Source: Bdellovibrio sp.
GTDB taxonomy: Bacteria; Bdellovibrionota; UBA1018
Direction of reading: 5' to 3'
DNA length: 64,000 bases
Assembly (NCBI GenBank): GCA_016185105.1
Contig: JACPOE010000012.1
Coordinates: 8,471 to 72,470, forward strand
In this document: positions 4,638 through 33,304 of the stretch, one piece after another
How the letters are laid out: the number at the start of each line of letters is the position of its first letter
How positions within the stretch are numbered: the stretch's first letter is position 1
The notes under the pieces: model-generated
The model's database searches: none
Seen by the model: the letters and a program-made list of their open reading frames with translations, nothing else
Told to the model about the DNA's origin: nothing
Program-made: the position numbers and the translations under genes

Positions 4638-6023
4638 TTAGAACGCCACTGACAGGGATACCCCACCTCCGAGCAGATTTCCACCTACGTCATAACCGGG
4701 AGATCCAATCTTTTGATCTGTACTCACTCCAGCCTCGTTTCCGGCTGTTTTGGTCACTCGAAAGGCCGTCAAAAGCTGATATGTGAAGTTAAAATCAATA
4801 TTGAGAGGGTTTTCTAGGGTAAGAAAATGAGGAACTTTCAGACCCAGTCCAATGTTTGCTGCATGTGTAGCCGGGTCCAGATAGTTCCCAGCGCCATTTG
4901 GCACCCCCTCAATCATACTGGGGCGATAGTAATATCCTAATCGCAGAACGGTCGTGTCGGAAAAAGAAATCTCGACCCCGCCCCGAGGCACGACAATGTT
5001 GACATAGTTAAAGGCAGGAACAGAGCCTGAAGCAATCGAAAACGAGCCAGTTCCCACTGGCGTGGTCTGAGGTTGCGAAATCAGCATTGCAGGAGCTCTA
5101 AACTGGTTCCAAATCTGCCAATCCACTTGGCCCACCACCTTCAGCCAAGAAGTAGGGGTAACGGTTCCTCCAATTTCCAAGGCCATCGGATCGTAAAACA
5201 GGGCCGAAACAGCCATAAAATTAAAATCAACCCCAGGAAGAGGTCCAAAGACACGAGCCGAGGAGCTCAAGGAAAAATTATTATCTGATGCCACCGGAGT
5301 TCTAAAAACAGTCGCTAAGCTGAATGGCTTTTCTGGAGGAGCGTAATAGACTCCAAAAAAAGGCGCGAGTTTAGGTAACATACTGGCAGTGAATCGCATT
5401 GAAGACGCAGTATTTGCCTGGGTATTTAAGAAAACGGTTCCATTTCCAGTCAGAGTAAAAGCAGCATGCACACCGGCTCCCAGGTAAAGTCCTTTGCCAA
5501 GAGCGGCGCCGGCTCCGAACTCAACTTGAGGACGCTGTGTCCGCGCTCGGTATTGAAAATACTCAGGTACGTAAGCTTCCCCCGAATCCATATAAGCTAG
5601 CTGGTTAAAAGGGAGGAAGCTAATCAGGCCAATTGTAAAATTTCCGACCTCAGGGAAAAGACGATACGTAAATCCGAGTTCTTGTCCCACAGTTGGTTTG
5701 TAGGTCATGTCCACATTGCCAGTAGCTAGCCCGTCGGCAATGAATGTATTTTGTGTCACTACACTATTGATCGGAGTAAAAGTGGGCTGAACATAGACAA
5801 ATCCCCAGCTCGCTCTAAAACGAGGCCCCTCGTCAGCCGCGGCGGCAAGCGCAGCCGGATTATGATAGGCAACAGAGGGGCTCGAGCCAAGACTCCCACC
5901 TGCCCCTCCCAATGACATGGACCGAGAGCCGAATCCAAAGATGTCTCCGACATTGGCCAGTGCTAAATTGCTCAGGAAAATAAAAAAGAAGGTGAAAACC
6001 AGAAAAGAAGATCTGAACTGCAT
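4638..6023 (-). CDS. outer-membrane beta-barrel protein, FadL/TodX-like hydrophobic-compound transporter (putative)
   Basis: Signal peptide, Gly/aromatic-rich beta-strand pattern and C-terminal ...LSVAF ending in Phe. It lies in the same co-directional gene array as the acyl-CoA ligase, not adjacent to it. Confidence 0.5.
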   Translation of the reverse strand: MQFRSSFLVFTFFFIFLSNLALANVGDIFGFGSRSMSLGGAGGSLGSSPSVAYHNPAALAAAADEGPRFRASWGFVYVQPTFTPINSVVTQNTFIADGLATGNVDMTYKPTVGQELGFTYRLFPEVGNFTIGLISFLPFNQLAYMDSGEAYVPEYFQYRARTQRPQVEFGAGAALGKGLYLGAGVHAAFTLTGNGTVFLNTQANTASSMRFTASMLPKLAPFFGVYYAPPEKPFSLATVFRTPVASDNNFSLSSSARVFGPLPGVDFNFMAVSALFYDPMALEIGGTVTPTSWLKVVGQVDWQIWNQFRAPAMLISQPQTTPVGTGSFSIASGSVPAFNYVNIVVPRGGVEISFSDTTVLRLGYYYRPSMIEGVPNGAGNYLDPATHAANIGLGLKVPHFLTLENPLNIDFNFTYQLLTAFRVTKTAGNEAGVSTDQKIGSPGYDVGGNLLGGGVSLSVAF

Positions 6024-21740: not shown

Positions 21741-22985
21741 ATGAACAAAATCTTAGTTTCGGTGCTAAAAGCAAAATACGATTTTCGACCGGATGTGTTG
21801 GATATTATCATTGGCGGCAGGTCTTCCATTGACTCGGCCGAGGCCTTTCGAGTTCAAAACTTGGAGGAGACTCATCGCTTCATTGCCAGCTATGGGTATG
21901 ATCTCGATGACCCAATTGAAAAAGCTGAGGTTCTTGGAAATTACCACGAGGCTTTGAATTTCATCCGCAAGACCTTTTTACAACCCGACAACCCTGATGG
22001 CTTGAAGTTAGAAATTCCAAGGAAACTTTTAGAATTAGCAGATGTGAGAGAGCTTTTCCTTTTGGTGAGCATGAATTATCCAGGCCAGAGCTCAGACAGT
22101 GCCGGTAAACTCCTGAAAAACTGGGCTTGCAGCGTCTTGAAAGTAATGCACACAATTGCCCACATTGACAAGGACATGAGGACGTCTTACTTCCCAGATA
22201 TTCAAAAACAGATTTTAGATCGCTATTATAAATTTATTCACCGCGACGACGAGGGTCGTCTTTTTATGGGCGAGAGTCCAGATGACCCACTCAGAGTTGA
22301 ATTGGCAGCTTTTGAAACTAAACCTAAGAAATCAAGAAACTCCACTCTCCTCAAACTCCTCCACAAACCAGAGAATGTAGCTGAAGAGTTATTTGATCGG
22401 GTGGGGATTCGTTTTACCACGCAGACTCCACTTGGAACTCTGCGCGTCTTAAAATTTTTAAAAGATAAAATGATTCTCATGCCACCCAATATCAAGCCCA
22501 GCCGTTCCCGCAACACCCTCATTCAAGTAGAAAAATTCAAAGCAACACTGAAAGACGTTTTTGAAAGGGCGGAAAGGGAAGAGCTTACTGAAACACAAGT
22601 TCTTGCAGAACTCGAAGCAGCAGCACACCCCCCGGACGCAAACCCGGAAAACCCGCACTCGAGCGAATTTTACCGCTCTATTCAATTTACATCGCGACAG
22701 TTAATTAAATTAAGGAACCCCGTATTTGACGAACTGAAAGAGCTTAAGACTATTGCCCGCACGAAACCCCCTGGCGAGGAAATCACTAAAATCCTCGAAA
22801 GGATTGATTTAAAGAATATTCAGCGGGAAATCCGATTCTTCTATCCGTTTGAAGTTCAATTGATGGATCTAAAAAGTGCCGAAGAAAATGAGAAGGGACG
22901 CAGCGCCCACAGCGAGTACAAGAAAGCCCAGATTTCCACAGCAATGAAACGTGTCATGGGAAGCTTGTTTGATGGCGCTCGATAG
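21741..22985 (+). CDS. uncharacterised protein with RelA/SpoT-like nucleotidyltransferase motif (putative)
   Basis: KPKKSRNSTLLKLLHK...ENVAEELFDRVGIRFTT resembles the RelA/SpoT synthetase-fold blocks RvKs..S..rK...K...feei.D..GiRvi. Confidence 0.55.
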   Translation: MNKILVSVLKAKYDFRPDVLDIIIGGRSSIDSAEAFRVQNLEETHRFIASYGYDLDDPIEKAEVLGNYHEALNFIRKTFLQPDNPDGLKLEIPRKLLELADVRELFLLVSMNYPGQSSDSAGKLLKNWACSVLKVMHTIAHIDKDMRTSYFPDIQKQILDRYYKFIHRDDEGRLFMGESPDDPLRVELAAFETKPKKSRNSTLLKLLHKPENVAEELFDRVGIRFTTQTPLGTLRVLKFLKDKMILMPPNIKPSRSRNTLIQVEKFKATLKDVFERAEREELTETQVLAELEAAAHPPDANPENPHSSEFYRSIQFTSRQLIKLRNPVFDELKELKTIARTKPPGEEITKILERIDLKNIQREIRFFYPFEVQLMDLKSAEENEKGRSAHSEYKKAQISTAMKRVMGSLFDGAR

Positions 22986-24189
22986 CGACGTTGCTCTTTT
23001 AGGAACAGGAGTGGCCCCTCTGATTGCGGCAAACCATTTGCTAAGTCAGGGAAAGTCCGTCCTATTACTCAACCCAGATCTTGATTTTTTTCTTGAAGAC
23101 TCTGAGCTTTCACTCGATCCGCTTTTACATGGGAAGATCACCCTGGATCGGATCCAAAAGAGCACCCCTCAAAAAGCTCTTGCCACGCTGAGACCCGATT
23201 TTCCGGGTCCTTTGGAGTTCTGGACTTCCCATATGCAAAAAAAAAAACAGGGATTCCACGACCCAACAGCCCCGCATTTGCGCGAAAGGGATCGACTTTG
23301 GATCATGCCAGATCAAGGATCCCAAGACTTGAGTTGGAGCGAACTTGAAAATCTTTATGTCGAAGCAGAGGACTCTGGACTCAACCCCCAGATCCTGGAT
23401 GGTTTCAGCGCTACAAGAAAATTCCCCGGTAGCACTTCCAGTCAACCAGGCTTCCGAGGTTTGCTGATTCCCAAACTCTGCGACCTCGACATCATGCGCT
23501 ATCGTATTGGGTTGATGGAATTCATTCGAGAACGGCTAGGACCTAAGAACGTCGTTTGTGCGGTGAACCAGCTCGATTGGCTGCCCGGTGGAATTCGATT
23601 TAGGGCTGGAAAAACTGTGACCACCGCTCAATTGGGGCTCGGGCTTTTAGTTTTTTGGACCCCGCGTTTAACCAGCTGGATTTTTGGACAGAGCCGATCT
23701 TTTGAGGTGAGACCTCCCAGCCCCCTAGGTATTCGACTCTGGGAAGAATGGTCTTTAATTTCCCGTGATCCGCCAAATCCACAAGTGATTGGTAATTTTT
23801 CGGATCTGACCGTTTGGGCAGACTATGAAGGACCACCCTCAGTAGACCCCAATCGGACTTCTCGCTTAAGCGCTCTAAGACTTGGCCCGCTAGTCACTAA
23901 ACTCGCACAACATCCAACCGATAATCAGTCGAATTGGGCATCCTCAGAGTCCTTCTATTCTCTGGCCCGTCTGACTCAAGATTTCTTAAATTGGAATCAC
24001 ACAACCATTCGAGGAATGAAAGCAAAGGCGATTTTTGAATGGAAGGATGAAACTCCGTGGACTATGTGCAAGACTCACCCCCGTATCGAAATTGTCAGAG
24101 GGTGTGACGGCCCGCTGGTAGATGTGGTTCGAACGGCCAAAGCTTCCTGCGATCGAATCCTTACGGAGGACAATGAACTTCTCAATTAG
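22972..24189 (+). CDS. FAD-dependent oxidoreductase (DAO-type, HcnC/OoxB-like; putative small subunit)
   Basis: N-terminal dinucleotide-binding fold DVALLGTGVAPLIAANHLLSQGKSVLLLNPD. It overlaps the upstream gene by about 14 nt and the downstream gene by about 17 nt. Confidence 0.55.
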   Translation: MALDSDVALLGTGVAPLIAANHLLSQGKSVLLLNPDLDFFLEDSELSLDPLLHGKITLDRIQKSTPQKALATLRPDFPGPLEFWTSHMQKKKQGFHDPTAPHLRERDRLWIMPDQGSQDLSWSELENLYVEAEDSGLNPQILDGFSATRKFPGSTSSQPGFRGLLIPKLCDLDIMRYRIGLMEFIRERLGPKNVVCAVNQLDWLPGGIRFRAGKTVTTAQLGLGLLVFWTPRLTSWIFGQSRSFEVRPPSPLGIRLWEEWSLISRDPPNPQVIGNFSDLTVWADYEGPPSVDPNRTSRLSALRLGPLVTKLAQHPTDNQSNWASSESFYSLARLTQDFLNWNHTTIRGMKAKAIFEWKDETPWTMCKTHPRIEIVRGCDGPLVDVVRTAKASCDRILTEDNELLN

Positions 24190-26254
24190 AGATGGAAAAT
24201 TCGATCTTGTCATTCTTGGAGGCCCTCGAACTGAATTGTGGCCCTCCCCAGGGGTGCGCGTTCTTTCTACCTTGTGCGCAGAAGCGGGCCTGAGTGTGGG
24301 GCAATACGGAGGCGACTCGATTACAGTGCGAGGAATTGTTCCTTCATCTGGAACCGGAGGAATCGCAATTATCGAGGACAATCAGCATCGCATCCATCGG
24401 ATTCGAGCCCGCGCTATTGTCCGGGTCCTACCCGAGTCTCACTGGCCCGACCCCTTTGCTGGGTGGTTTTCTCCAGGCCTCATTCCTCTTCCCACGGCAG
24501 AAAAACTTTTTCGAGAAAGTGAGCTTCTTTGGGAACCGACCGTTGTGATCTTAGGATCAGGAAATTCTGCACTCCAATTTGGAACTTCACTCTTAGAAGC
24601 AGGCACGGAAGAGGTCCTGTCGATTGAGACCGCCTCAGGAGAGTGGGGAAAAAAGCCGATTTCGGGATGGGAAGTGCACCAACGTCGCTTTGAAATGGCC
24701 GGCGGTAAAATCCTTCAAGCGCGACCGGTGGAACTCGTCAACAAGGGGCCGATGAGCTGGCTCTTCCGGGTAAAGGACGCACAGGGAATCCGTGTCATCG
24801 AAACTACGCGAGTGGTCTCTGTCGGGCCTTTTCGAAATCAAATCGGCATTCGTGAACATCCTCCTGGATCTTGCCTCTATGAAATGGACCAAACTGCAAG
24901 CGCACTGCTCCAACAAGACGTGGAAGGTTGGCTTCTAGAAGAAGAACGCGGGAAGTGGCTTGCCGGAAAAATTGTTCGAGCGCTGGCTCTCAATCTTTCA
25001 AAAAAGAGCGAACTGGATCGCCTGGTTCGAAAAGCTCGCACCCGTTTGAAGCACTATTTTGACCACAGAGAATTTCCCCACCAGTCCACCTTTGAGGGCA
25101 AATGGCTTTCAATCGCAGAGAAAAAATTTGTTCATAATTTTGGTGGAGTCCCAAAAACAAAACAGCTGAGCGCCCCAGTGGCTTCAGTCGAATGCTTCGA
25201 AGATATCTCGTGTCAGATCTGCGAGAAAGTTTGCCCAACCAGCGCAATTTCAATCGGCCCAGAAGCCAGAAAGACCAACCAGATTCTTAAGGAAAGCCTT
25301 TGTACTGCGTGCGGCCTTTGTCTACGCACCTGTCCGAGCTCTGCGATCATCATGATCAAAGAAGCTGAAAACAAGCCCACCTCACAAATCACTTTACCGT
25401 GGTTTGGAAAACGTCCATGGCGAGTGGGAGAATCAGCAGTGTTGATGAATCGGCAGGGTGAGGCCCTCGGTTCGGCTCGAGTCAGCAAGGTCGACCCAGA
25501 AGCCGACACGCCGGAATTTTCGGCTAAGATCCGAAGCGCTGAAACCTCTCAACTTGTTCAACTTGAGGTCCCATCCCACTTAGCTTGGGAAGCTAGAGGC
25601 ATTCGAAGAAATCGAGCAAAGGCGACCGAAGATGAAGCCTACCTTTCTGCGGTCAATCGCTCTTCCTCACGAAGTGAAAAGGTTGAAGTTCTTATGAATG
25701 GCGAAAAGAGATGGGTTCGTGACCGCATTTCCATTTCTGTCGCGCTTTTTGAGACGGGGCAAAATCGTGCAGCAGACAATCTCCTCTGCAAGGATGGCTC
25801 CTGCGGCTTATGTCAAATTTCAGTGGATGGAGTTTCCAAATTGGCTTGCCAGACCAAGATTCATCGAGGGATGTCGATTCGAACGTCCGATCCGAAAGTC
25901 TTAGCAAACGAAATTGAAGACAAATCGAGCCCTCGAGGTCACTTGAAATTGGAAGGCTGGGGGCCTAGCCCGATCATCACACCTCCGCATGTCGGAGTTC
26001 AAGCAGAGCCCCCTCCTTCGAATGCGCTCTGCCCTTGCTTGGGCATCACTCTGGAAAAAGTCATTGAACGACTCAAACAAGGCGAAATTCATTCTCCCGA
26101 AGCTCTAAGGGCGATTACCCACGTCGGAGAAGGGAAATGCCATGGACAAATTTGTATGCCCGCTTTTATCCGAGCGATGAAGGAAAACGGAATCCCTGTT
26201 TCACAGTGGATCGACTGGAGATTTCCTTGGTCGGACTGGAAGGTTCATTCCTGA
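24173..26254 (+). CDS. multi-domain flavo-iron-sulfur oxidoreductase subunit (pyridine-nucleotide-disulfide-like folds, 4Fe-4S dicluster, 2Fe-2S ferredoxin-like, BFD-like 2Fe-2S)
   Basis: DLVILGG and VVILGSGNSALQFG are Rossmann motifs. CQICEKVCPTSAI and CTACGLCLRTCPSSAI form a 4Fe-4S dicluster. CKDGSCGLC...C is 2Fe-2S ferredoxin-like. CPCLGIT...GKCHGQIC is BFD-like. Confidence 0.6.
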   Translation: MNFSIRDGKFDLVILGGPRTELWPSPGVRVLSTLCAEAGLSVGQYGGDSITVRGIVPSSGTGGIAIIEDNQHRIHRIRARAIVRVLPESHWPDPFAGWFSPGLIPLPTAEKLFRESELLWEPTVVILGSGNSALQFGTSLLEAGTEEVLSIETASGEWGKKPISGWEVHQRRFEMAGGKILQARPVELVNKGPMSWLFRVKDAQGIRVIETTRVVSVGPFRNQIGIREHPPGSCLYEMDQTASALLQQDVEGWLLEEERGKWLAGKIVRALALNLSKKSELDRLVRKARTRLKHYFDHREFPHQSTFEGKWLSIAEKKFVHNFGGVPKTKQLSAPVASVECFEDISCQICEKVCPTSAISIGPEARKTNQILKESLCTACGLCLRTCPSSAIIMIKEAENKPTSQITLPWFGKRPWRVGESAVLMNRQGEALGSARVSKVDPEADTPEFSAKIRSAETSQLVQLEVPSHLAWEARGIRRNRAKATEDEAYLSAVNRSSSRSEKVEVLMNGEKRWVRDRISISVALFETGQNRAADNLLCKDGSCGLCQISVDGVSKLACQTKIHRGMSIRTSDPKVLANEIEDKSSPRGHLKLEGWGPSPIITPPHVGVQAEPPPSNALCPCLGITLEKVIERLKQGEIHSPEALRAITHVGEGKCHGQICMPAFIRAMKENGIPVSQWIDWRFPWSDWKVHS

Positions 26255-27336: not shown

Positions 27337-27783
27337 TTAAGTAGGCAGCACTGTCTTTGGGACTTTCAAGATACTCTCACACACAGTTGCAAATGCCTGT
27401 TTCGTCTTATGGTCTGAACTCCGATAGGCATCATACAGACTACGAACGAACTGATAGTCTTCGGACGCAACTACCAACGTAGGTAGGGCACCCTCGGCTG
27501 GCACGGACTCTAAAGACTTTCCCAACCTGCCGTTCAGCTTTAGCGCGTACTCTTTTTCTAGCAGGTTCATAATCTCTGAATCTGGAGTCATCAAGGCTTT
27601 GGCTAATATCGGAACGTGTACAGGAGGTAGAGGTGTGACGCCTCTTTCTACGTTGGAGATAAACTGTGTGCTCACAGCTGGAGTAAACAGCATCCCCAAT
27701 GCCCGCTGAGACATCCGTAGAGCCTCGCGACGTTTTCGAATGAAATCCCCCACCAATTTCAACCTTTTCATTGAATCAACCAT
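27337..27783 (-). CDS. XRE-family helix-turn-helix transcriptional regulator
   Basis: RKRREALRMSQRALGMLFTPAVSTQFISNVERG is HTH_XRE-like. It is divergent from the repeat-protein gene. Confidence 0.6.
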   Translation of the reverse strand: MVDSMKRLKLVGDFIRKRREALRMSQRALGMLFTPAVSTQFISNVERGVTPLPPVHVPILAKALMTPDSEIMNLLEKEYALKLNGRLGKSLESVPAEGALPTLVVASEDYQFVRSLYDAYRSSDHKTKQAFATVCESILKVPKTVLPT

Positions 27784-28043
27784 ATTTAAATAGTTTAATG
27801 CAGAGCGTTAATCCTGTCAATTAAGCCCCTTAAGTGCTCATATTAATTACACTTTTTTTATATAGTTAATCTGTTACATGAAGACATCGAATCGGATGAT
27901 AAATATCTTAAGTGGAATTTGGTTTAAGTTACATTAACGAACTTAAGTCACAGATCTCAAAAAATACCCTGGCTCAATGTGTTACTTTCTTTTTTATTTT
28001 TACAAAAAAATGTTTGACTCGCATCCAGCAAATGATTACTACG

Positions 28044-28064
28044 CGAGAACATAAATCTCTGAAT
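28044..28064. promoter_or_regulatory. perfect 9-bp inverted repeat AATCTCTGA-ATC-TCAGAGATT (candidate operator) about 100 bp upstream of the 28165 start
   Basis: Read directly from the sequence. It lies inside the 380-bp AT-rich divergent intergenic region, which also carries 4 copies of TTAAGT. Confidence 0.4.
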
Positions 28065-28164
28065 CTCAGAGATTAAACAGCTTGTGTTGGAGAGGGCCGA
28101 CACTATCTCGCTTGTTCAGGAGTTCCCGGGTCTCGTTCCACACCAAATTTAGGGGATATTTACT

Positions 28165-28980
28165 ATGAAAAAGTTGACATTGGCTCTTGTTGGACTTTCC
28201 GTTGGCAGCATGGCTTCTGCAGGCACAATCAACATGTCCTGTACCGAAGGCACCGGACTGTTTGGCAACAAGGGTCTTCAGACTTTCAACTTGATGTTGG
28301 ATGCTTACGGCACACAGAACTTCACCAGCCCATCTGGCGCTGAATTCATCGTAGCCGTTAAAGGCGGCAAAGGCGGAGCGATGGGCGCAGGCATGGGCAT
28401 GGGACAAGCACAGGGCCAGGCTCAGGGTCAATGCGCACAAGGTCAGGTAGCTCAGATTGGCCAAGCTCAGGGCCAGGTTCAGCAGGGTCAGACTCAGGGT
28501 CAATGTGCACAGGGCCAGGTAGCTCAAGTTGGACAGGCTCAGGGCCAGGTTCAGCAGGGCCAGACCCAAGGTCAATGCGCTCAGGGACAGGTTGCCCAAG
28601 TTGGACAGGCTCAGGGCCAGGTTCAACAGGGTCAATGCGCTCAAGGACAAGCACAGGGCCAAGTCGGACAAGTCGGACAAGTTGGTCAGGTTGGCCAAGT
28701 TGGCCAAGTTGGTCAGGTCGGACAAATTGGGCAAGCTCAGCAGGATGACATGGAAGACGTCGAGCAGATCGGCGGAATGGATCAAGCAGTTGGCCAAGGT
28801 TTCGGCCCTGCCAAGATCAAGGTCACTTTCATGAAAACCAAAGCTCCTCACGCTGTGCGCTTGACTGTTCCAAGCACCCACATCTTGAAAGCTAACTCTC
28901 AGTCCAAGAAATTCCACGCTGGCTACAGCATGGGCGGCAAGCACTTTGTCACCAACTGCCAGATGACCTACATGCCCTAG
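28165..28980 (+). CDS. secreted Gln/Gly-rich tandem-repeat protein (novel; function unknown)
   Basis: Signal peptide MKKLTLALVGLSVGSMASA. Spaced RBS AGGGGA. Three to four copies of GQCAQGQVAQ[IV]GQAQGQVQQGQTQ, then (GQV)x8, then a unique C-terminal domain. A strong terminator follows. Confidence 0.75.
   Translation: MKKLTLALVGLSVGSMASAGTINMSCTEGTGLFGNKGLQTFNLMLDAYGTQNFTSPSGAEFIVAVKGGKGGAMGAGMGMGQAQGQAQGQCAQGQVAQIGQAQGQVQQGQTQGQCAQGQVAQVGQAQGQVQQGQTQGQCAQGQVAQVGQAQGQVQQGQCAQGQAQGQVGQVGQVGQVGQVGQVGQVGQIGQAQQDDMEDVEQIGGMDQAVGQGFGPAKIKVTFMKTKAPHAVRLTVPSTHILKANSQSKKFHAGYSMGGKHFVTNCQMTYMP
28426..28659 (+). repeat. 72-nt in-frame tandem repeat, about 3.2 copies, encoding GQCAQGQVAQ[I/V]GQAQGQVQQGQTQ
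   Basis: Copies at 28426-28497 and 28498-28569, a 60-nt copy at 28570-28629, and a partial copy to 28659. The copies are near-identical at DNA level with synonymous differences. Confidence 0.8.
28660..28731 (+). repeat. 9-nt in-frame microsatellite (CARGTYGGN)x8 encoding (QVG)8
   Basis: caagtcgga caagtcgga caagttggt caggttggc caagttggc caagttggt caggtcgga caaattggg. Confidence 0.85.
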
Positions 28981-29022
28981 TTTCTAGGCACTCAGTTTGA
29001 ACTTTAGTTCTAAACCGAGTAA

Positions 29023-29060
29023 GGCCCGACAGATGAAAATCTGCCGGGCCTTTTCTTTTT
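29023..29060 (+). terminator. rho-independent terminator of the repeat-protein gene
   Basis: GGCCCGaCAGAT-gaaa-ATCTGcCGGGCC is followed by TTTTCTTTTT. Confidence 0.8.
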
Positions 29061-29156
29061 GCCAGATCTCACTTAATTCCCTAGCCCTAACGAGCTCGAG
29101 GCAACCGAGGCCTCTGAGACGCCTTCAGTCTGAACCTGATCAGGTGGCCTGAGGAA

Positions 29157-31412
29157 TTAAAAGGTGAAGAGCCGCTCTCCGGCTCGTCCGCCCTCTCGCA
29201 CAAAATACTGCCGCAAAGCCGAGTTCTTAGTGTCTTTCAGCTCTGGGTCCTCTTTCAAAATCTGAATGGCATCTTCACGCGCCCTAATCAGCCATTCGGC
29301 ATCTCTCACTAAATTGGCTACCTTAAAAGGAAGTCCACCCGATTGACGTGTCCCCAAAAACTCGCCTGGCCCTCTAATTTCTAAGTCAGCCTCGGCAATC
29401 TTGAATCCATCTTGTGTCTCCTCCAGCACTTCCAGACGTGTGGAGGTAGGACCTTCTTCCTTTGCTGTCGTAAAGAGGTAACAATAGGATTGCAGCGAAC
29501 CCCGCCCCACTCGACCCCTGAGTTGATGTAATTGGGACAGTCCAAAACGTTCAGCATGCTCGATCACCATCACGGTAGAGTTGGGAACATCAACTCCAAC
29601 CTCAACAACAGTTGTAGAAACTAAGACCTGAATTTCGCCCTTCTTGAAGCGCTCCATAGTGGCAACTTTTTCATCGTTTTTCATTTGGCCGTGAAGAAGC
29701 CCGACTCTGAATTCAGGAAATACCTCAGTTGCTAGATTTTCCGCTTCAGCAATCGCAGACTTGAGCTGAGTAAATCCTTCCGCTTCGCTATCGCTCACCA
29801 ATGGATAAATAAAATAGGCCTGACGCCCCGATTTGAGTTCATTTTGAATTTGAAGATAAGCTTTGGCTCTCTGCGTTTTATCTCGAACAACCTTTGTAAT
29901 TACAGGGCTCCGCCCAGGAGGCATTTCCCGAATCAGAGTAACCACTAGGTCCCCAAAAGCAGTCATCGCTAAGGTCCTAGGAATCGGTGTCGCACTTAAA
30001 ATCAAGGAATGCGGATGCACCTGAGTCCCGTTCGCTAAGGTACGAATCCCTTTGGACTTCAGAGTCCGTCGTTGATCCACACCGAACCGATGCTGCTCAT
30101 CAATCAAAACATAGTCTAAACATTGAAACTGAACCGGGTCCTCAAGCAAAGCATGAGTACCAATCAGGATCATCGGCTCACCTGAACCAAGCCTTTTTTG
30201 AATTTGGCTGCGTTCGGGACCCGTTGACTTGCCTGTCAAGAGAGCGGCTGGGAGCTTGCCTTGAAAAAGGCTCTGGCAAGACCTAAAATGTTGCTCAGCC
30301 AGAATCTCGGTAGGCACCATCAAGGCAACCTGTCCGCCTTCAGCAATCACTGCCGCAGCAGTTAGAAACGCTACCACCGTCTTTCCAGAACCTACATCGC
30401 CCTGAACCAGACGGCTCATGGGGTGCGGTTGCAACAGATCTTTAAAGATATCTTCGACAGCTCGCTTTTGATCTCCCGTCAAACGAAAAGGAAGGCTTTT
30501 TGCCAGACTTTCCATCTGGTCCCGTCCTTCTCTCCGACCAAACGACAGAGCGTTCACACGGGTTGTTTGAAGCCTCTTGCGAAGCATTAAATATTCAAAC
30601 TTGAAGAACTCCCCATAGATCAGTCTCTCGTGCGCCGGAGTCCTAAAACTAACCAACTTCTCTAGGCTGTAAGCAGCTTCTTCAGGTGGAAAATGAAGTG
30701 CGCGAACTGAAGGCGCTAGCCTGGGAAGGCTCCACTTTTGAAGAAGATTATCGGGCAGCTCCTCTGGCAATGTCCCGCCAAAACTTTCAAGCGCCTGCCA
30801 AAGAATATTGCGAAGAGTGCGACTGGTAACCCCTTCGATCTCAACGTAAACCGGCACCATTCTTCCGAAACTATGATGATGAGGCCCGTCTTCGCCCAAA
30901 TCTGAGCTAACTCCCCAGGTGATCTCGGGATGCACAATTTCGGGACGCCCCTGGTAGAACTTTACTTTTCCACTCACCCCAACCTGGATGCCTGGCTGAA
31001 ATCTTTTCTCAATTCCACGCGGCGGGTGAAACCACTTCAAGCTAAGCGTTCCAGATTCATTCGCGCAGCGAACCTCGAGGAGAGATTTTCCAAACTTTGC
31101 AATTGGAATCATCCTCTGACTCTGCACGCGCACAGATAACGTCGCGCGGGCACCTTCGGTTAGGTCTGAAATTTTTTGAACGCGTGTTCGATCTTCGTAG
31201 GTCCTAGGAAAAAAATTGAAAAGATCGCGAACAGTTTGAATATCTCGATTTGCGAAAATGGTCCCCAGTTTTGGACCCACTCCCTTTACAAATTGCACCA
31301 AAGTATCTTGCGGACTCCCTGGGATTGACTCAGGAAGCTTTCTGGGCTTTCGTGAAGGGCTATTCGTAGTAGACTTTGAGAATGTCGTAATGAACTTGTC
31401 CTTTTGGAGCAT
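29157..31412 (-). CDS. recG: ATP-dependent DNA helicase RecG
   Basis: DEQHRFGV (DEAH box), GQMKNDEK, SATPIPRTL and the N-terminal wedge region VKGVGPKLG. The ATG at 31412 overlaps the greA 3' end by 52 nt, so the start is uncertain. Confidence 0.85.
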   Translation of the reverse strand: MLQKDKFITTFSKSTTNSPSRKPRKLPESIPGSPQDTLVQFVKGVGPKLGTIFANRDIQTVRDLFNFFPRTYEDRTRVQKISDLTEGARATLSVRVQSQRMIPIAKFGKSLLEVRCANESGTLSLKWFHPPRGIEKRFQPGIQVGVSGKVKFYQGRPEIVHPEITWGVSSDLGEDGPHHHSFGRMVPVYVEIEGVTSRTLRNILWQALESFGGTLPEELPDNLLQKWSLPRLAPSVRALHFPPEEAAYSLEKLVSFRTPAHERLIYGEFFKFEYLMLRKRLQTTRVNALSFGRREGRDQMESLAKSLPFRLTGDQKRAVEDIFKDLLQPHPMSRLVQGDVGSGKTVVAFLTAAAVIAEGGQVALMVPTEILAEQHFRSCQSLFQGKLPAALLTGKSTGPERSQIQKRLGSGEPMILIGTHALLEDPVQFQCLDYVLIDEQHRFGVDQRRTLKSKGIRTLANGTQVHPHSLILSATPIPRTLAMTAFGDLVVTLIREMPPGRSPVITKVVRDKTQRAKAYLQIQNELKSGRQAYFIYPLVSDSEAEGFTQLKSAIAEAENLATEVFPEFRVGLLHGQMKNDEKVATMERFKKGEIQVLVSTTVVEVGVDVPNSTVMVIEHAERFGLSQLHQLRGRVGRGSLQSYCYLFTTAKEEGPTSTRLEVLEETQDGFKIAEADLEIRGPGEFLGTRQSGGLPFKVANLVRDAEWLIRAREDAIQILKEDPELKDTKNSALRQYFVREGGRAGERLFTF

Positions 31413-31888: not shown

Positions 31889-33304
31889 CTAAAAAACGTA
31901 TTTTAGCTCTGTGTACAAAGCATTATAGGGCGCCAAGACCCCCAAAGGACGGTCTGCTGGCCCTGCGTAATAGTTCAGTCCTAGCGTGGCTTTCAAAGAA
32001 TCAGAAAGGCGGTAAGTTACCTCTGGGCGCAACAAAAGCCCTCCGCCCAAGAAATTTCCAAGCAGAAATACTTCTCCAGCGAGTCGATTTTGATCATTGG
32101 AATATGACAAACGAAAAGACGCAGCTGGACGCCAGACATCCTGATAGTTCTGAATCAGCGCATTAACTCCCGCTACTTGCTGGTAAACAAAAGCCATCAC
32201 AGGATTAGGATCGGTGGCCTGTGAAGGAGGGGTGAAATAAGGAAAATAGCGAATCAAAAACTGGGTCTGAACTCTAAAATCATCTCCTATGCCCCGCTCC
32301 AGACCAACTACTGCGTCCAGATGGCTGGGCTGGATCATCGGATTTTGGCCATCGCCGTTTTCAGTCCAAACATAAGCAGCCTCGCCCCTCAGAACATACT
32401 TTCCAAAACTGACTGAACTATCCCCCCCTAACGCACGGTATTGATGAAACCCCTGAGATACGGAAACTGTAGGGGTAGTTCCAGAAATCGAAACCGAATT
32501 CACTCCAATTTCCGGTAAGTGATTCCATCCTTTGAAGACCAAGACACTGGCATCCCAGCCTTCACCCGAGTAAGCCACTTTAAGGGCGAGCTCCGAATTT
32601 GAGAGAGTGGTTGCCGGAGATTGAATCGTACTTACCCCGGAAAGGCCCGATGGAATCTGTCCCGGAGCTAGCAGGAGAACCGATTGAGGAAAAACAGGGG
32701 TCCCGACAAACGTGAAGGTAAAAGGTGAATTTCCAGAAGAAGGAGTCCAACTCAAAAGAACACTCACCGCCCCAATTCGTCTGACCTCGTCGTCAGGATT
32801 GAAAAATCCGTAGTCTTTTGCAGTCAAAAAATCGGTTGGATTAACTCCATCCGACTTCCCCCAGGGAAGAATCATTTTCCCCATTCTGACATTCCAACCT
32901 GACTTGAAATAGTGAACATAGCCCTCCCGAACTCCAGGAGAAAACCCCCCTTTGCCGGAAACAGAGGATGCCGCTATTTGATCCGCAGTCAAAATCAAAT
33001 GGGCCGAAGTTCCTTCTCCTACCTTTGGATCAAGCTGTAGCCATGCGGATCCAGAAATCTGCTGGAGTGAGCCGTTGAAAAAATTTCCGGTCGGAATGTA
33101 GAAGTCAGAAAAAATCCGTCCTGATACCGAAGTTTCGTCACGAGAATCCTCTGAAACAGAAGTCTCCGCCGCCTCGGCCAACAAAGGCTGCTGCCCAAAA
33201 CCGAAGAAAAGGGCCCCTGCCCAAACGAAAAGTCCAATCAAAAGGGGGTTCCATACTGTTCTTAGTTCACCGAACATAGATCCCCCACCCATTCTTGTGG
33301 TCAT
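31889..33304 (-). CDS. putative outer-membrane beta-barrel protein
   Basis: Signal peptide, alternating hydrophobic strands, and a C-terminal ...LKYVF aromatic terminus. It is co-directional and adjacent to the LolA-like/ABC genes. Confidence 0.5.
   Translation of the reverse strand: MTTRMGGGSMFGELRTVWNPLLIGLFVWAGALFFGFGQQPLLAEAAETSVSEDSRDETSVSGRIFSDFYIPTGNFFNGSLQQISGSAWLQLDPKVGEGTSAHLILTADQIAASSVSGKGGFSPGVREGYVHYFKSGWNVRMGKMILPWGKSDGVNPTDFLTAKDYGFFNPDDEVRRIGAVSVLLSWTPSSGNSPFTFTFVGTPVFPQSVLLLAPGQIPSGLSGVSTIQSPATTLSNSELALKVAYSGEGWDASVLVFKGWNHLPEIGVNSVSISGTTPTVSVSQGFHQYRALGGDSSVSFGKYVLRGEAAYVWTENGDGQNPMIQPSHLDAVVGLERGIGDDFRVQTQFLIRYFPYFTPPSQATDPNPVMAFVYQQVAGVNALIQNYQDVWRPAASFRLSYSNDQNRLAGEVFLLGNFLGGGLLLRPEVTYRLSDSLKATLGLNYYAGPADRPLGVLAPYNALYTELKYVF

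Follow-up and report, generated by a model that had tools for sequence, protein, structure and literature searches.

A fast-evolving, probably exported repeat protein encoded beside recG in uncultured Bdellovibrionota

The sequence considered here, referred to as the window, is a stretch of 64,000 nucleotides (nt) of contig JACPOE010000012.1 from Bdellovibrio sp. (assembly GCA_016185105.1, positions 8,471 to 72,470). At 28165-28980 on the plus strand, it carries a gene for a protein of 271 amino acids (aa) with a Gln/Gly-rich tandem-repeat core. We lean towards the reading that this protein is exported by the Sec route to the envelope or the extracellular space, and that it belongs to a small, very fast-evolving family of one uncultured freshwater/peat subclade of the Bdellovibrionota. 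The evidence comes from the substitution pattern of the repeats, the layout of the protein, its position and promoter in related genomes, and structure prediction. Features of the gene are on the plus strand unless stated otherwise.

The open reading frame (ORF) at 28165-28980 consists of 271 codons plus a stop codon and reads as described in an earlier note on this DNA. Its repeats provide an internal test of the coding frame. Between the copies of a 72-nt repeat, 24 of 26 differences fall at codon position 3 of the plus frame, giving 23-24 synonymous to 2 non-synonymous changes, and both non-synonymous changes exchange Ile and Val. The corresponding ratio is 10:15 in the frame of an antisense ORF, 0:23 in three of the remaining four frames and 10:13 in the last. 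In a second array, with a period of 9 nt, codon position 3 holds 48 of 55 pairwise differences. Since the differences between repeat copies are mostly synonymous in the plus frame, as against 10:15 in the antisense frame, the former is identified as the coding frame, and the pattern indicates that it is translated and under purifying selection. The antisense ORF (28066-28944, minus strand, 292 aa) is longer than the real gene that it overlaps and is best read as a shadow, not a gene. It is Leu-rich and arises from the Gln codons of the gene: read on the opposite strand, CAA and CAG become TTG and CTG, which encode Leu. Gene callers that favour length could choose the wrong strand here.

A spurious ORF, or a repeat region created by misassembly, a possibility named in the earlier note, can be regarded as effectively refuted. 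Short-read assemblies can mis-size tandem repeats, and the window protein itself is absent from a collection of 15 billion proteins. Against this explanation stand the overwhelmingly synonymous repeat differences and the divergence of the 72-nt units by 13-21%, which is enough for unambiguous assembly. Furthermore, the Logan assembly of run SRR12113392 contains an identical, separately assembled contig of 4,772 bp (L001), on which the identical protein is called with the same repeat copy number; L001 is the only other assembly of the window allele and may come from the same sample as the window. Finally, the promoter, the ribosome-binding site (RBS) and the terminator are conserved, and positional orthologues exist.

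The protein is composed of a signal peptide, two terminal modules and a repetitive core. The Sec-type signal peptide (aa 1-19, 28165-28221) was recognized by eye from its MKK start, hydrophobic core and ASA, with predicted cleavage before Gly20, and it can be aligned to those of the other lineages described below. The secreted tandem-repeat protein proposed earlier is supported. The N-terminal module (aa 20-78, 28222-28398) is predicted to form beta strands, contains the invariant Cys26 in C-T-E and ends in the Gly/Met-rich sequence KGGKGGAMGAGMGMG. It is followed by the core (aa 79-193, 28399-28743), which is 43% Gln and 23% Gly and has no Pro. The remaining part (aa 194-271, 28744-28977) consists of the acidic linker DDMEDVEQIGGMDQ and a Lys/His-rich C-terminal module, for which beta strands are again predicted; here the invariant Cys265 lies in T-N-C-Q-M-T-Y, and the protein ends in ...NCQMTYMP. 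The mature chain contains 11 Met, including a Met-rich GAMGAGMGMG stretch, and 6 Cys.

The first part of the core is made up of about 3.5 units of 24 aa, GQCAQGQVAQ[IV]GQAQGQVQQGQTQ, that is, three full copies and one truncated copy with one Cys each. The cysteines are therefore found at positions 26, 90, 114, 138, 158 and 265, one per unit and one near each end of the protein. At the DNA level, Tandem Repeats Finder places the 72-nt period either at 28411-28631 (3.1 copies, 87% matches, score 330) or at 28411-28679 (3.7 copies, 79%). The copies had been described as nearly identical; their identity is in fact 79-87%, with nearly all differences between them synonymous, and a drift of this extent and kind implies that the array is old. 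The units are followed by GQV seven times, GQI and GQA, and not by eight GQV as first reported. These nine uninterrupted Gly-X-Y triplets largely coincide with the 9-nt array at 28660-28735 (8.4 copies, 79% matches).

Database searches did not connect the protein to any described family. It has no Pfam match at E <= 0.01, and NCBIfam yielded only weak Scl1/Scl2 matches (12.2 and 11.1 bits, where 400 and 325 would be required; E ~0.1). PDB sequence searches with the protein and with a family profile returned noise, and none of the other family members matched Pfam, NCBIfam or the PDB. A whole-protein search of 5.8 billion clusters was swamped by low-complexity candidates; its single match, the collagen-repeat protein P0001, covered the GQV/GQI region only and was rejected as compositional. 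With the core removed and the two ends joined, neither a word-index search nor a full HMMER search against 1.84 billion representative proteins gave a match. These joined-ends searches missed even the positional orthologues, and the divergence must therefore be extreme. A family-profile search of a large protein collection returned only P0002 and P0003, which are introduced below. A tblastn search of the window and all fetched loci with the whole protein and with its two ends showed no paralogue in the window, and an inverted-repeat search around the gene found no mobile-element ends. No family member is named or studied in any source, and nothing relevant on such a protein was found in the literature. 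The earlier statement that the protein belongs to no known family was hence confirmed at the level of sequence comparison, across Pfam, NCBIfam, the PDB and two very large protein searches.

Relatives were recovered through the genomic position of the gene, between recG, with which it is convergent, and a gene for an XRE-type helix-turn-helix (HTH) protein, from which it is divergent. The neighbourhood in the window consists of recG, the HTH gene, a hydrolase gene and a gene for an iron-sulfur (Fe-S) protein. RecG of the window is 56-62% identical to RecG of metagenome-assembled genomes of uncultured Bdellovibrionota/Oligoflexia. Among the related loci, L002, L004 and L006 have recG followed by the XRE-type HTH gene, an alpha/beta hydrolase gene and a gene for a large Fe-S protein, as in the window. 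In L008, where recG and the Fe-S protein gene are also present, the HTH gene is inverted and the hydrolase gene is missing. In all of these, recG and the HTH gene are ~30-110 bp apart with no gene in between. A 262-aa ORF (P0003) is found at the place and in the orientation of the window gene in L003. A metagenome scan with the HTH alignment (A2) provided 59 further loci, in most of which the recG-HTH gap is 66-230 bp. In L047/L048 the gap holds a 260-aa gene, the product of which is P0002; this gene is present on 16 contigs, including L106-L111. The genes in the gap of L075 and L078 encode 236 and 260 aa, respectively. About 30 related loci do not have the gene.

The family was defined from L003, L047/L048 and L075/L078, and the window gene was tested against it. 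Homology is clear between P0002 and P0003 (BLASTP E = 3e-31), and P0002 matches the L078 protein in its N-terminal part (E = 1e-5). Position, orientation, a length of 236-271 aa, an RBS of their own, a hairpin after the stop codon and a signal peptide ending in A-x-A are common to the four lineages. All four also have Cys-[T/Y]-Glu ~6-9 residues past the predicted cleavage site and, 5-8 residues before the C-terminus, the beta-strand motif T-x-C-x-[V/M]-x-[Y/W]. Between the terminal modules lies a core of ~115-145 residues, in which Gln is the commonest or second commonest residue in every lineage; the Gln content is 36% in the window protein versus 24-29% in the other lineages. The L003 protein has 14 Cys, and the mature proteins of L047 and L075/L078 contain 11 and 3, respectively. 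Locus, promoter, three-part layout and size thus liken P0002 (L047/L048, L106-L111), P0003 (L003) and the L075/L078 protein to the window protein, whereas their cores are unrelated in detail to its core. The leave-one-out hidden Markov model (HMM) of the N-terminal module found the window protein at E = 3e-4, as the top non-training match among 3881 ORFs. With hhalign, the window protein aligned to the family over residues 1-31 (E = 3.2e-5, probability 72.6%), a weak match that is partly driven by the signal peptide. We are fairly sure that the window gene is a highly diverged positional orthologue. Judged from these comparisons, the family is tiny and undescribed, and only synteny recovered its members.

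There is a small chance that the window gene does not belong to the family defined by L003, L047 and L078, and is instead an unrelated or chimeric gene that came to lie in a variable recG-HTH junction, perhaps keeping only the resident promoter and a signal-peptide-encoding 5' end. Such an origin would account for the confinement of detectable similarity to residues 1-31, for the failure of the leave-one-out HMM to find the C-terminal module, for BLASTP matches to L078 that are of low complexity only, and for the unrelated genes that fill the same gap in L049, L066, L072 and L084. It is opposed by the agreement in orientation, length and three-part architecture and by a promoter common to all members. 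Cysteines are also present at equivalent positions near both ends, the C-terminal motif is shared, and L047, the sister of the window in a tree of the flanking genes, carries a family member.

The gap between recG and the HTH gene also accommodates other cargo. In L049 (1192-2562), L066 (288-6001), L072 (186-1157) and L084 (2419-6001) it is occupied by genes unrelated to the family, which include several predicted secreted proteins and, in L066, a histidine kinase/response regulator pair. The presence of these genes suggests that the junction is a hot spot for gene gain and loss. Members of the L047 lineage have an additional ORF of 148-160 aa between the family gene and recG (L047, 3903-4385, minus strand; L106, 8926-9372, plus strand; also L107-L111). 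Its product has a lipoprotein-like signal (…VAMAAC) and 7 Cys, with a weak LptM-signal match as its only link to Pfam or NCBIfam.

Expression signals provide a further link between the lineages. A candidate sigma-70-type promoter (28014-28042) consists of a -35 element TTGACT (28014-28019), a 17-nt spacer and a -10 element TACTAC (28037-28042). The pattern TTGACT-17 nt-TA[AC]T[AT][AC] occurs once in each of the upstream regions of the genes of the window, L003, L047 and L075/L078, 122-171 nt before the ATG, and in all four lineages it is immediately preceded by an A-tract, AAAAAAT[A/G]nn. In the window this A/T-rich tract is ttttttatttttacaaaaaaatgt (27990-28013), directly before the -35 element, and it may act as an UP-like element. 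Transcription is predicted to start at ~28049, which gives a 5' untranslated region (UTR) of ~115 nt. About 5 nt past the predicted start, at the 5' end of the UTR, lies a perfect 9-bp palindrome, AATCTCTGA-ATC-TCAGAGATT (28054-28074). It is the sole element retained in the centroid fold of the UTR, which is not unusually structured overall (z = -0.43). A comparable 5' hairpin is found in L003, and in L047 and L078 it is weak. The palindrome may form a stabilizing stem-loop at the 5' end or serve as an operator, possibly one bound by the divergent XRE-type regulator. Rfam detected nothing credible in the UTR, either in a permissive scan of 27700-29200 or in a gathering-threshold scan of the whole window.

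Translation may be initiated from the RBS AGGGGA (28151-28156), 8 nt before the ATG; the orthologues have AGGAGA, AGGAGG or GAGGGA at equal distance. Downstream of the gene, an intrinsic terminator (29021-29060) is formed by a hairpin at 29021-29052, with a G+C-rich stem of 13 bp, one mismatch and a GAAA loop, followed by the U-tract UUUUCUUUUU up to 29060. It folds with -24.2 kcal/mol (z = -3.9), and strong hairpins are also found just past the stop codons of the orthologues. A generic promoter and terminator scan missed both conserved elements, the promoter because its -10 element is weak and the terminator because of the one internal mismatch in its stem. With neighbours on the opposite strand on both sides, the gene can only be monocistronic. 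An independently punctuated unit, as anticipated in the earlier note, is thus supported by the RBS, the terminator, the neighbours and the candidate promoter conserved in four lineages, and we regard the gene as a real, separately transcribed unit for an exported protein. From such signals alone, abundant expression may be expected.

The evolution of the protein contrasts with that of its neighbours. Flanking RecG and HTH proteins are ~63-69% identical between the window and L047, whereas the target protein is nearly unalignable; it therefore evolves far faster than its neighbours. In a neighbour-joining tree based on the RecG C-terminus and the HTH protein, all carriers fall into one subclade, in which they are interleaved with non-carriers, and the window and L047 are sisters. 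This distribution suggests one origin followed by several losses. The cores of L003 and L047 are essentially non-repetitive and rich in Cys, Pro and Gln. The L078 core, on the other hand, is encoded by 13 copies of an 18-nt unit at 97% identity, each specifying AAPAQQ. From these differences we infer that the core is rebuilt in each lineage by the birth and decay of tandem repeats. A derivation of the 24-aa unit from a segment of an L047-type core (GQC...GQAQ...QTQ) is not claimed, as the resemblance is not significant in Gln-rich sequence.

Length variation was seen in a relative. L075 and L078 are 99.9% identical over 12 kb and differ by exactly 72 bp, which corresponds to four 18-nt units (8 versus 12 AAPAQQ) in the repeat region at 5160-5395 of each (genes 4972-5682 and 4900-5682, respectively). 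Both are short-read assemblies, and the difference may be a real polymorphism or an assembly effect. The window repeats (72-nt array 79-87%, 9-nt array 79%) are not near-perfect, slippage-prone DNA of the kind found in the L078 array (97%). Because they are only 79-87% identical, with synonymous drift, phase or length variation by slipped-strand mispairing is less likely for the window allele, and the copy number in L001 is the same. Of the phase or length variability suggested in the earlier note, a difference in repeat number between assemblies was seen in the orthologue. One Cys per repeat holds for the window units but is not a family trait, because the core repeats of L075/L078 have no Cys.

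For the structure of the protein, we favour a scheme in which the conserved function resides in the two all-beta end modules, which probably pack against each other. The first and last strands would be neighbours, stapled by a Cys26-Cys265 disulfide in the oxidizing periplasm. A terminal disulfide, rather than or besides intermolecular cross-links, is proposed because invariance is limited to the two cysteines close to the mature N- and C-terminus. The Gln-rich core, probably disordered, would project as a long hydrated loop or spacer that is expandable and weakly constrained, its length and composition mattering more than its sequence. In the window lineage, the core would have been rebuilt from the Cys-bearing 24-aa Gly/Gln unit and (GQV)n, resulting in four extra, evenly spaced cysteines that could form further intramolecular or intermolecular disulfides. 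All of this, from the pairing of the cysteines and the joint folding of the ends to the disordered core and the structural or spacer role, is inferred.

AlphaFold2 was applied to the full-length protein with a three-sequence alignment and to a fusion of the N- and C-terminal modules without the core. Both models have beta strands at both ends, and in the full-length model the core is coil (pLDDT, the predicted local distance difference test score, ~25). The strands of the N-terminal module span residues 21-30, 36-46, 50-54 and 60-67, with a pLDDT of only 50-67. Several points weigh against the proposed scheme. Both runs have low confidence (mean pLDDT 38 for the full-length protein and 36 for the fusion), so that removal of the core brought no gain, neither model is reliable, and co-folding and the Cys26-Cys265 bond are predictions. 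The odd numbers of cysteines in the mature proteins of L075/L078 and L047 do not fit a purely intramolecular disulfide scheme. The window gene is linked to the other three lineages by synteny, by its promoter, by short motifs and by similarity over the first ~31 residues, and the C-terminal module was not detected by the leave-one-out HMM or hhalign. In addition, the locus offers no functionally informative neighbours.

The spacer role has parallels among known envelope proteins. The Pro-rich region of TonB, the hinge of OmpA and the linkers between the lipoyl domains of E2 are hydrophilic, low-complexity segments in which length and composition count for more than sequence. The orthologue cores resemble them in being Pro-rich (18% Pro in L047) or built of AAPAQQ repeats (L075/L078), and the L078 core gave low-complexity matches to linker regions of EntB/EntC and DnaX. 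In contrast, the window core has Gly instead of Pro, there are no TonB or OmpA domains, and the ends are novel.

An unlikely explanation, in line with the matrix or adhesive idea of the earlier note, is a disulfide-cross-linked extracellular polymer, in which monomers with elastomeric, hydrated Gly/Gln repeats would be joined by the regularly spaced and the terminal cysteines into a network or fibre, comparable to wheat high-molecular-weight (HMW) glutenin and, more loosely, to spidroins. Those proteins also have short, Cys-bearing, non-repetitive ends and a long, fast-evolving Gln/Gly repeat core; the likeness is confined to architecture and composition and is no database match. Glutenin repeats are PGQGQQ and GQQ and that of MaSp2 is GPGQQ, compared with the GQxQ/GQxxQ sub-motifs of the window protein, which occur between Cys-bearing ends together with one Cys per 24 aa. 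Moreover, the odd cysteine counts of L047 (11) and L075/L078 (3) would leave a free thiol, and abundant production would agree with the A-tract promoter, the good RBS and the strength of the terminator. However, neither the core cysteines, which the AAPAQQ repeats lack altogether, nor the core Gly are conserved in the family, 271 aa is small for a fibre monomer, and no secretion, assembly or anchoring genes adjoin the gene. Most related genomes do without it, which argues against an essential envelope component. There is no homology to glutenins, spidroins or any other structural protein family (Pfam, PDB), the core contains neither Pro nor Tyr, and the window protein is bacterial.

A bolder version of this idea seems improbable to us. 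It holds that the family represents a new bacterial structural biopolymer, the exported monomers of which are joined head-to-tail or side-by-side via their disulfide-bearing ends into an elastic, hydrated, cross-linked coat or matrix around the cells. The Gln-rich cores, Gly/Gln in the window and Pro/Gln or Ala/Pro/Gln in the relatives, would then be the elastic part. If true, the protein would be a prokaryotic analogue of glutenin- or silk-type elastomers, with mechanical or adhesive properties tuned by lineage-specific repeat turnover. The structural, adhesive or matrix role suggested in the earlier note is a plausible guess.

Amphipathic beta strands, predicted at both ends and 7-8 in total, would also suit an envelope protein built as a small beta-barrel or beta-sandwich, perhaps in the outer membrane, that is under diversifying selection from phage or predator-prey interactions and exposes the core as a loop hypervariable in sequence and length, a contingency-type variation. 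The ...VSWY end of the L075/L078 protein, which is like an outer-membrane beta-signal, the extreme divergence relative to neighbouring genes, the copy number difference between L075 and L078 and the patchy presence of the gene point in the same direction. Nevertheless, we consider this possibility doubtful at best. With only ~110 residues outside the core, the protein would be short for a membrane barrel of 8 strands, and three of the four C-termini have no final aromatic residue. In the usual topology of outer-membrane proteins, an insert between strands 4 and 5 is on the periplasmic side, so the core would face the periplasm and not the outside. Furthermore, slippage should be inefficient in window repeats of 79-87% DNA identity, and the one independent assembly has an equal copy number.

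Still less probable is a fibre of regularly folded repeats. The 24-aa units would stack into a curli-like beta-solenoid or an amyloid with ladders of Gln and Cys, or (GQV)n would form a trimeric collagen-like stalk. As in CsgA of curli and other functional amyloids, imperfect, Gln- and Gly-rich repeats of ~20-24 aa come after a Sec signal, and the 24-aa unit is near the curli repeat length and has Gly at regular positions. BclA of Bacillus, Scl1/Scl2 of Streptococcus and proteins with the collagen repeat (PF01391) are likewise exported, with end modules kept apart by central repeats of strain-dependent length, and the window protein has nine uninterrupted Gly-X-Y triplets. The collagen-repeat protein P0001 as sole whole-protein match and the weak Scl1/Scl2 matches could be taken as further hints. 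Yet no Pfam Collagen or Curlin match was obtained at the threshold given above, the Scl scores of 11-12 bits are far from the cut-offs of 325-400, and the nine triplets are free of Pro and compare with 20 triplets in the Pfam collagen model. AlphaFold2 predicts coil for the repeats. Neither the 24-aa unit nor a Gly-X-Y run occurs in the rest of the family, and there are no csgBEFG-type neighbours, sortase features or LPXTG anchor.

An idea that we find slightly less convincing again, and very unlikely, is a periplasmic metal-binding or redox-buffering protein that presents Cys, His and Met on a flexible Gln-rich scaffold. It is prompted by the abundance of Cys (14 and 11) and His (11 and 10) in L003 and L047, with motifs such as HCYEQVH, HHRG and PCPC, and by the Met-rich stretch, the 11 Met and the 6 Cys of the mature window protein. 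On the other side, no metal-binding motif is conserved across the four lineages, the L075/L078 protein has few Cys, His or Met, no metal-homeostasis genes are nearby, and known metal-binding families were not matched.

Some further features of the window were recorded. The HTH gene (27337-27783, minus strand) has a promoter of its own at 27784-27820 (minus strand), with TTGACA, a 17-nt spacer and a TATAAT-like TAAACT. It is kept in most aligned carriers and non-carriers, and L002 does not match. Because the -10 element ends only ~8 nt before the ATG, the HTH mRNA may be leaderless or nearly so. Beside the hydrolase gene, a gene pair (22951-26254, plus strand) is conserved in all related loci. 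The two ORFs overlap by 68 nt and encode a 412-aa protein with a Rossmann-like GTGVAP N-terminus and no Pfam match, and a 710-aa protein with 4Fe-4S dicluster and 2Fe-2S domains. A 471-aa ORF at 31889-33304 (minus strand), without a Pfam match, has an N-terminal hydrophobic segment and a C-terminus ...ELKYVF and resembles an outer-membrane beta-barrel protein. No tRNA genes, tmRNA genes or Rfam families (gathering threshold) were found in the whole 64-kb window.

Exported proteins in which a variable repetitive core lies between conserved ends are a known type; what is new is the family itself, which is restricted to uncultured Bdellovibrionota. No open question in the field currently depends on this protein. 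Two practical lessons can be drawn from it. Sequence searches miss such orphans, and in this case synteny alone recovered the relatives. Moreover, Gln-rich genes create longer antisense shadow ORFs that are able to mislead annotation. The family provides a clear bacterial case in which the ends, the promoter and the genomic position are conserved while a low-complexity core is repeatedly rebuilt through the birth, drift and decay of tandem repeats. Should the protein turn out to be a cross-linked component of the envelope or matrix, it would bear on the surface biology of predatory-type bacteria and on the design of protein materials.

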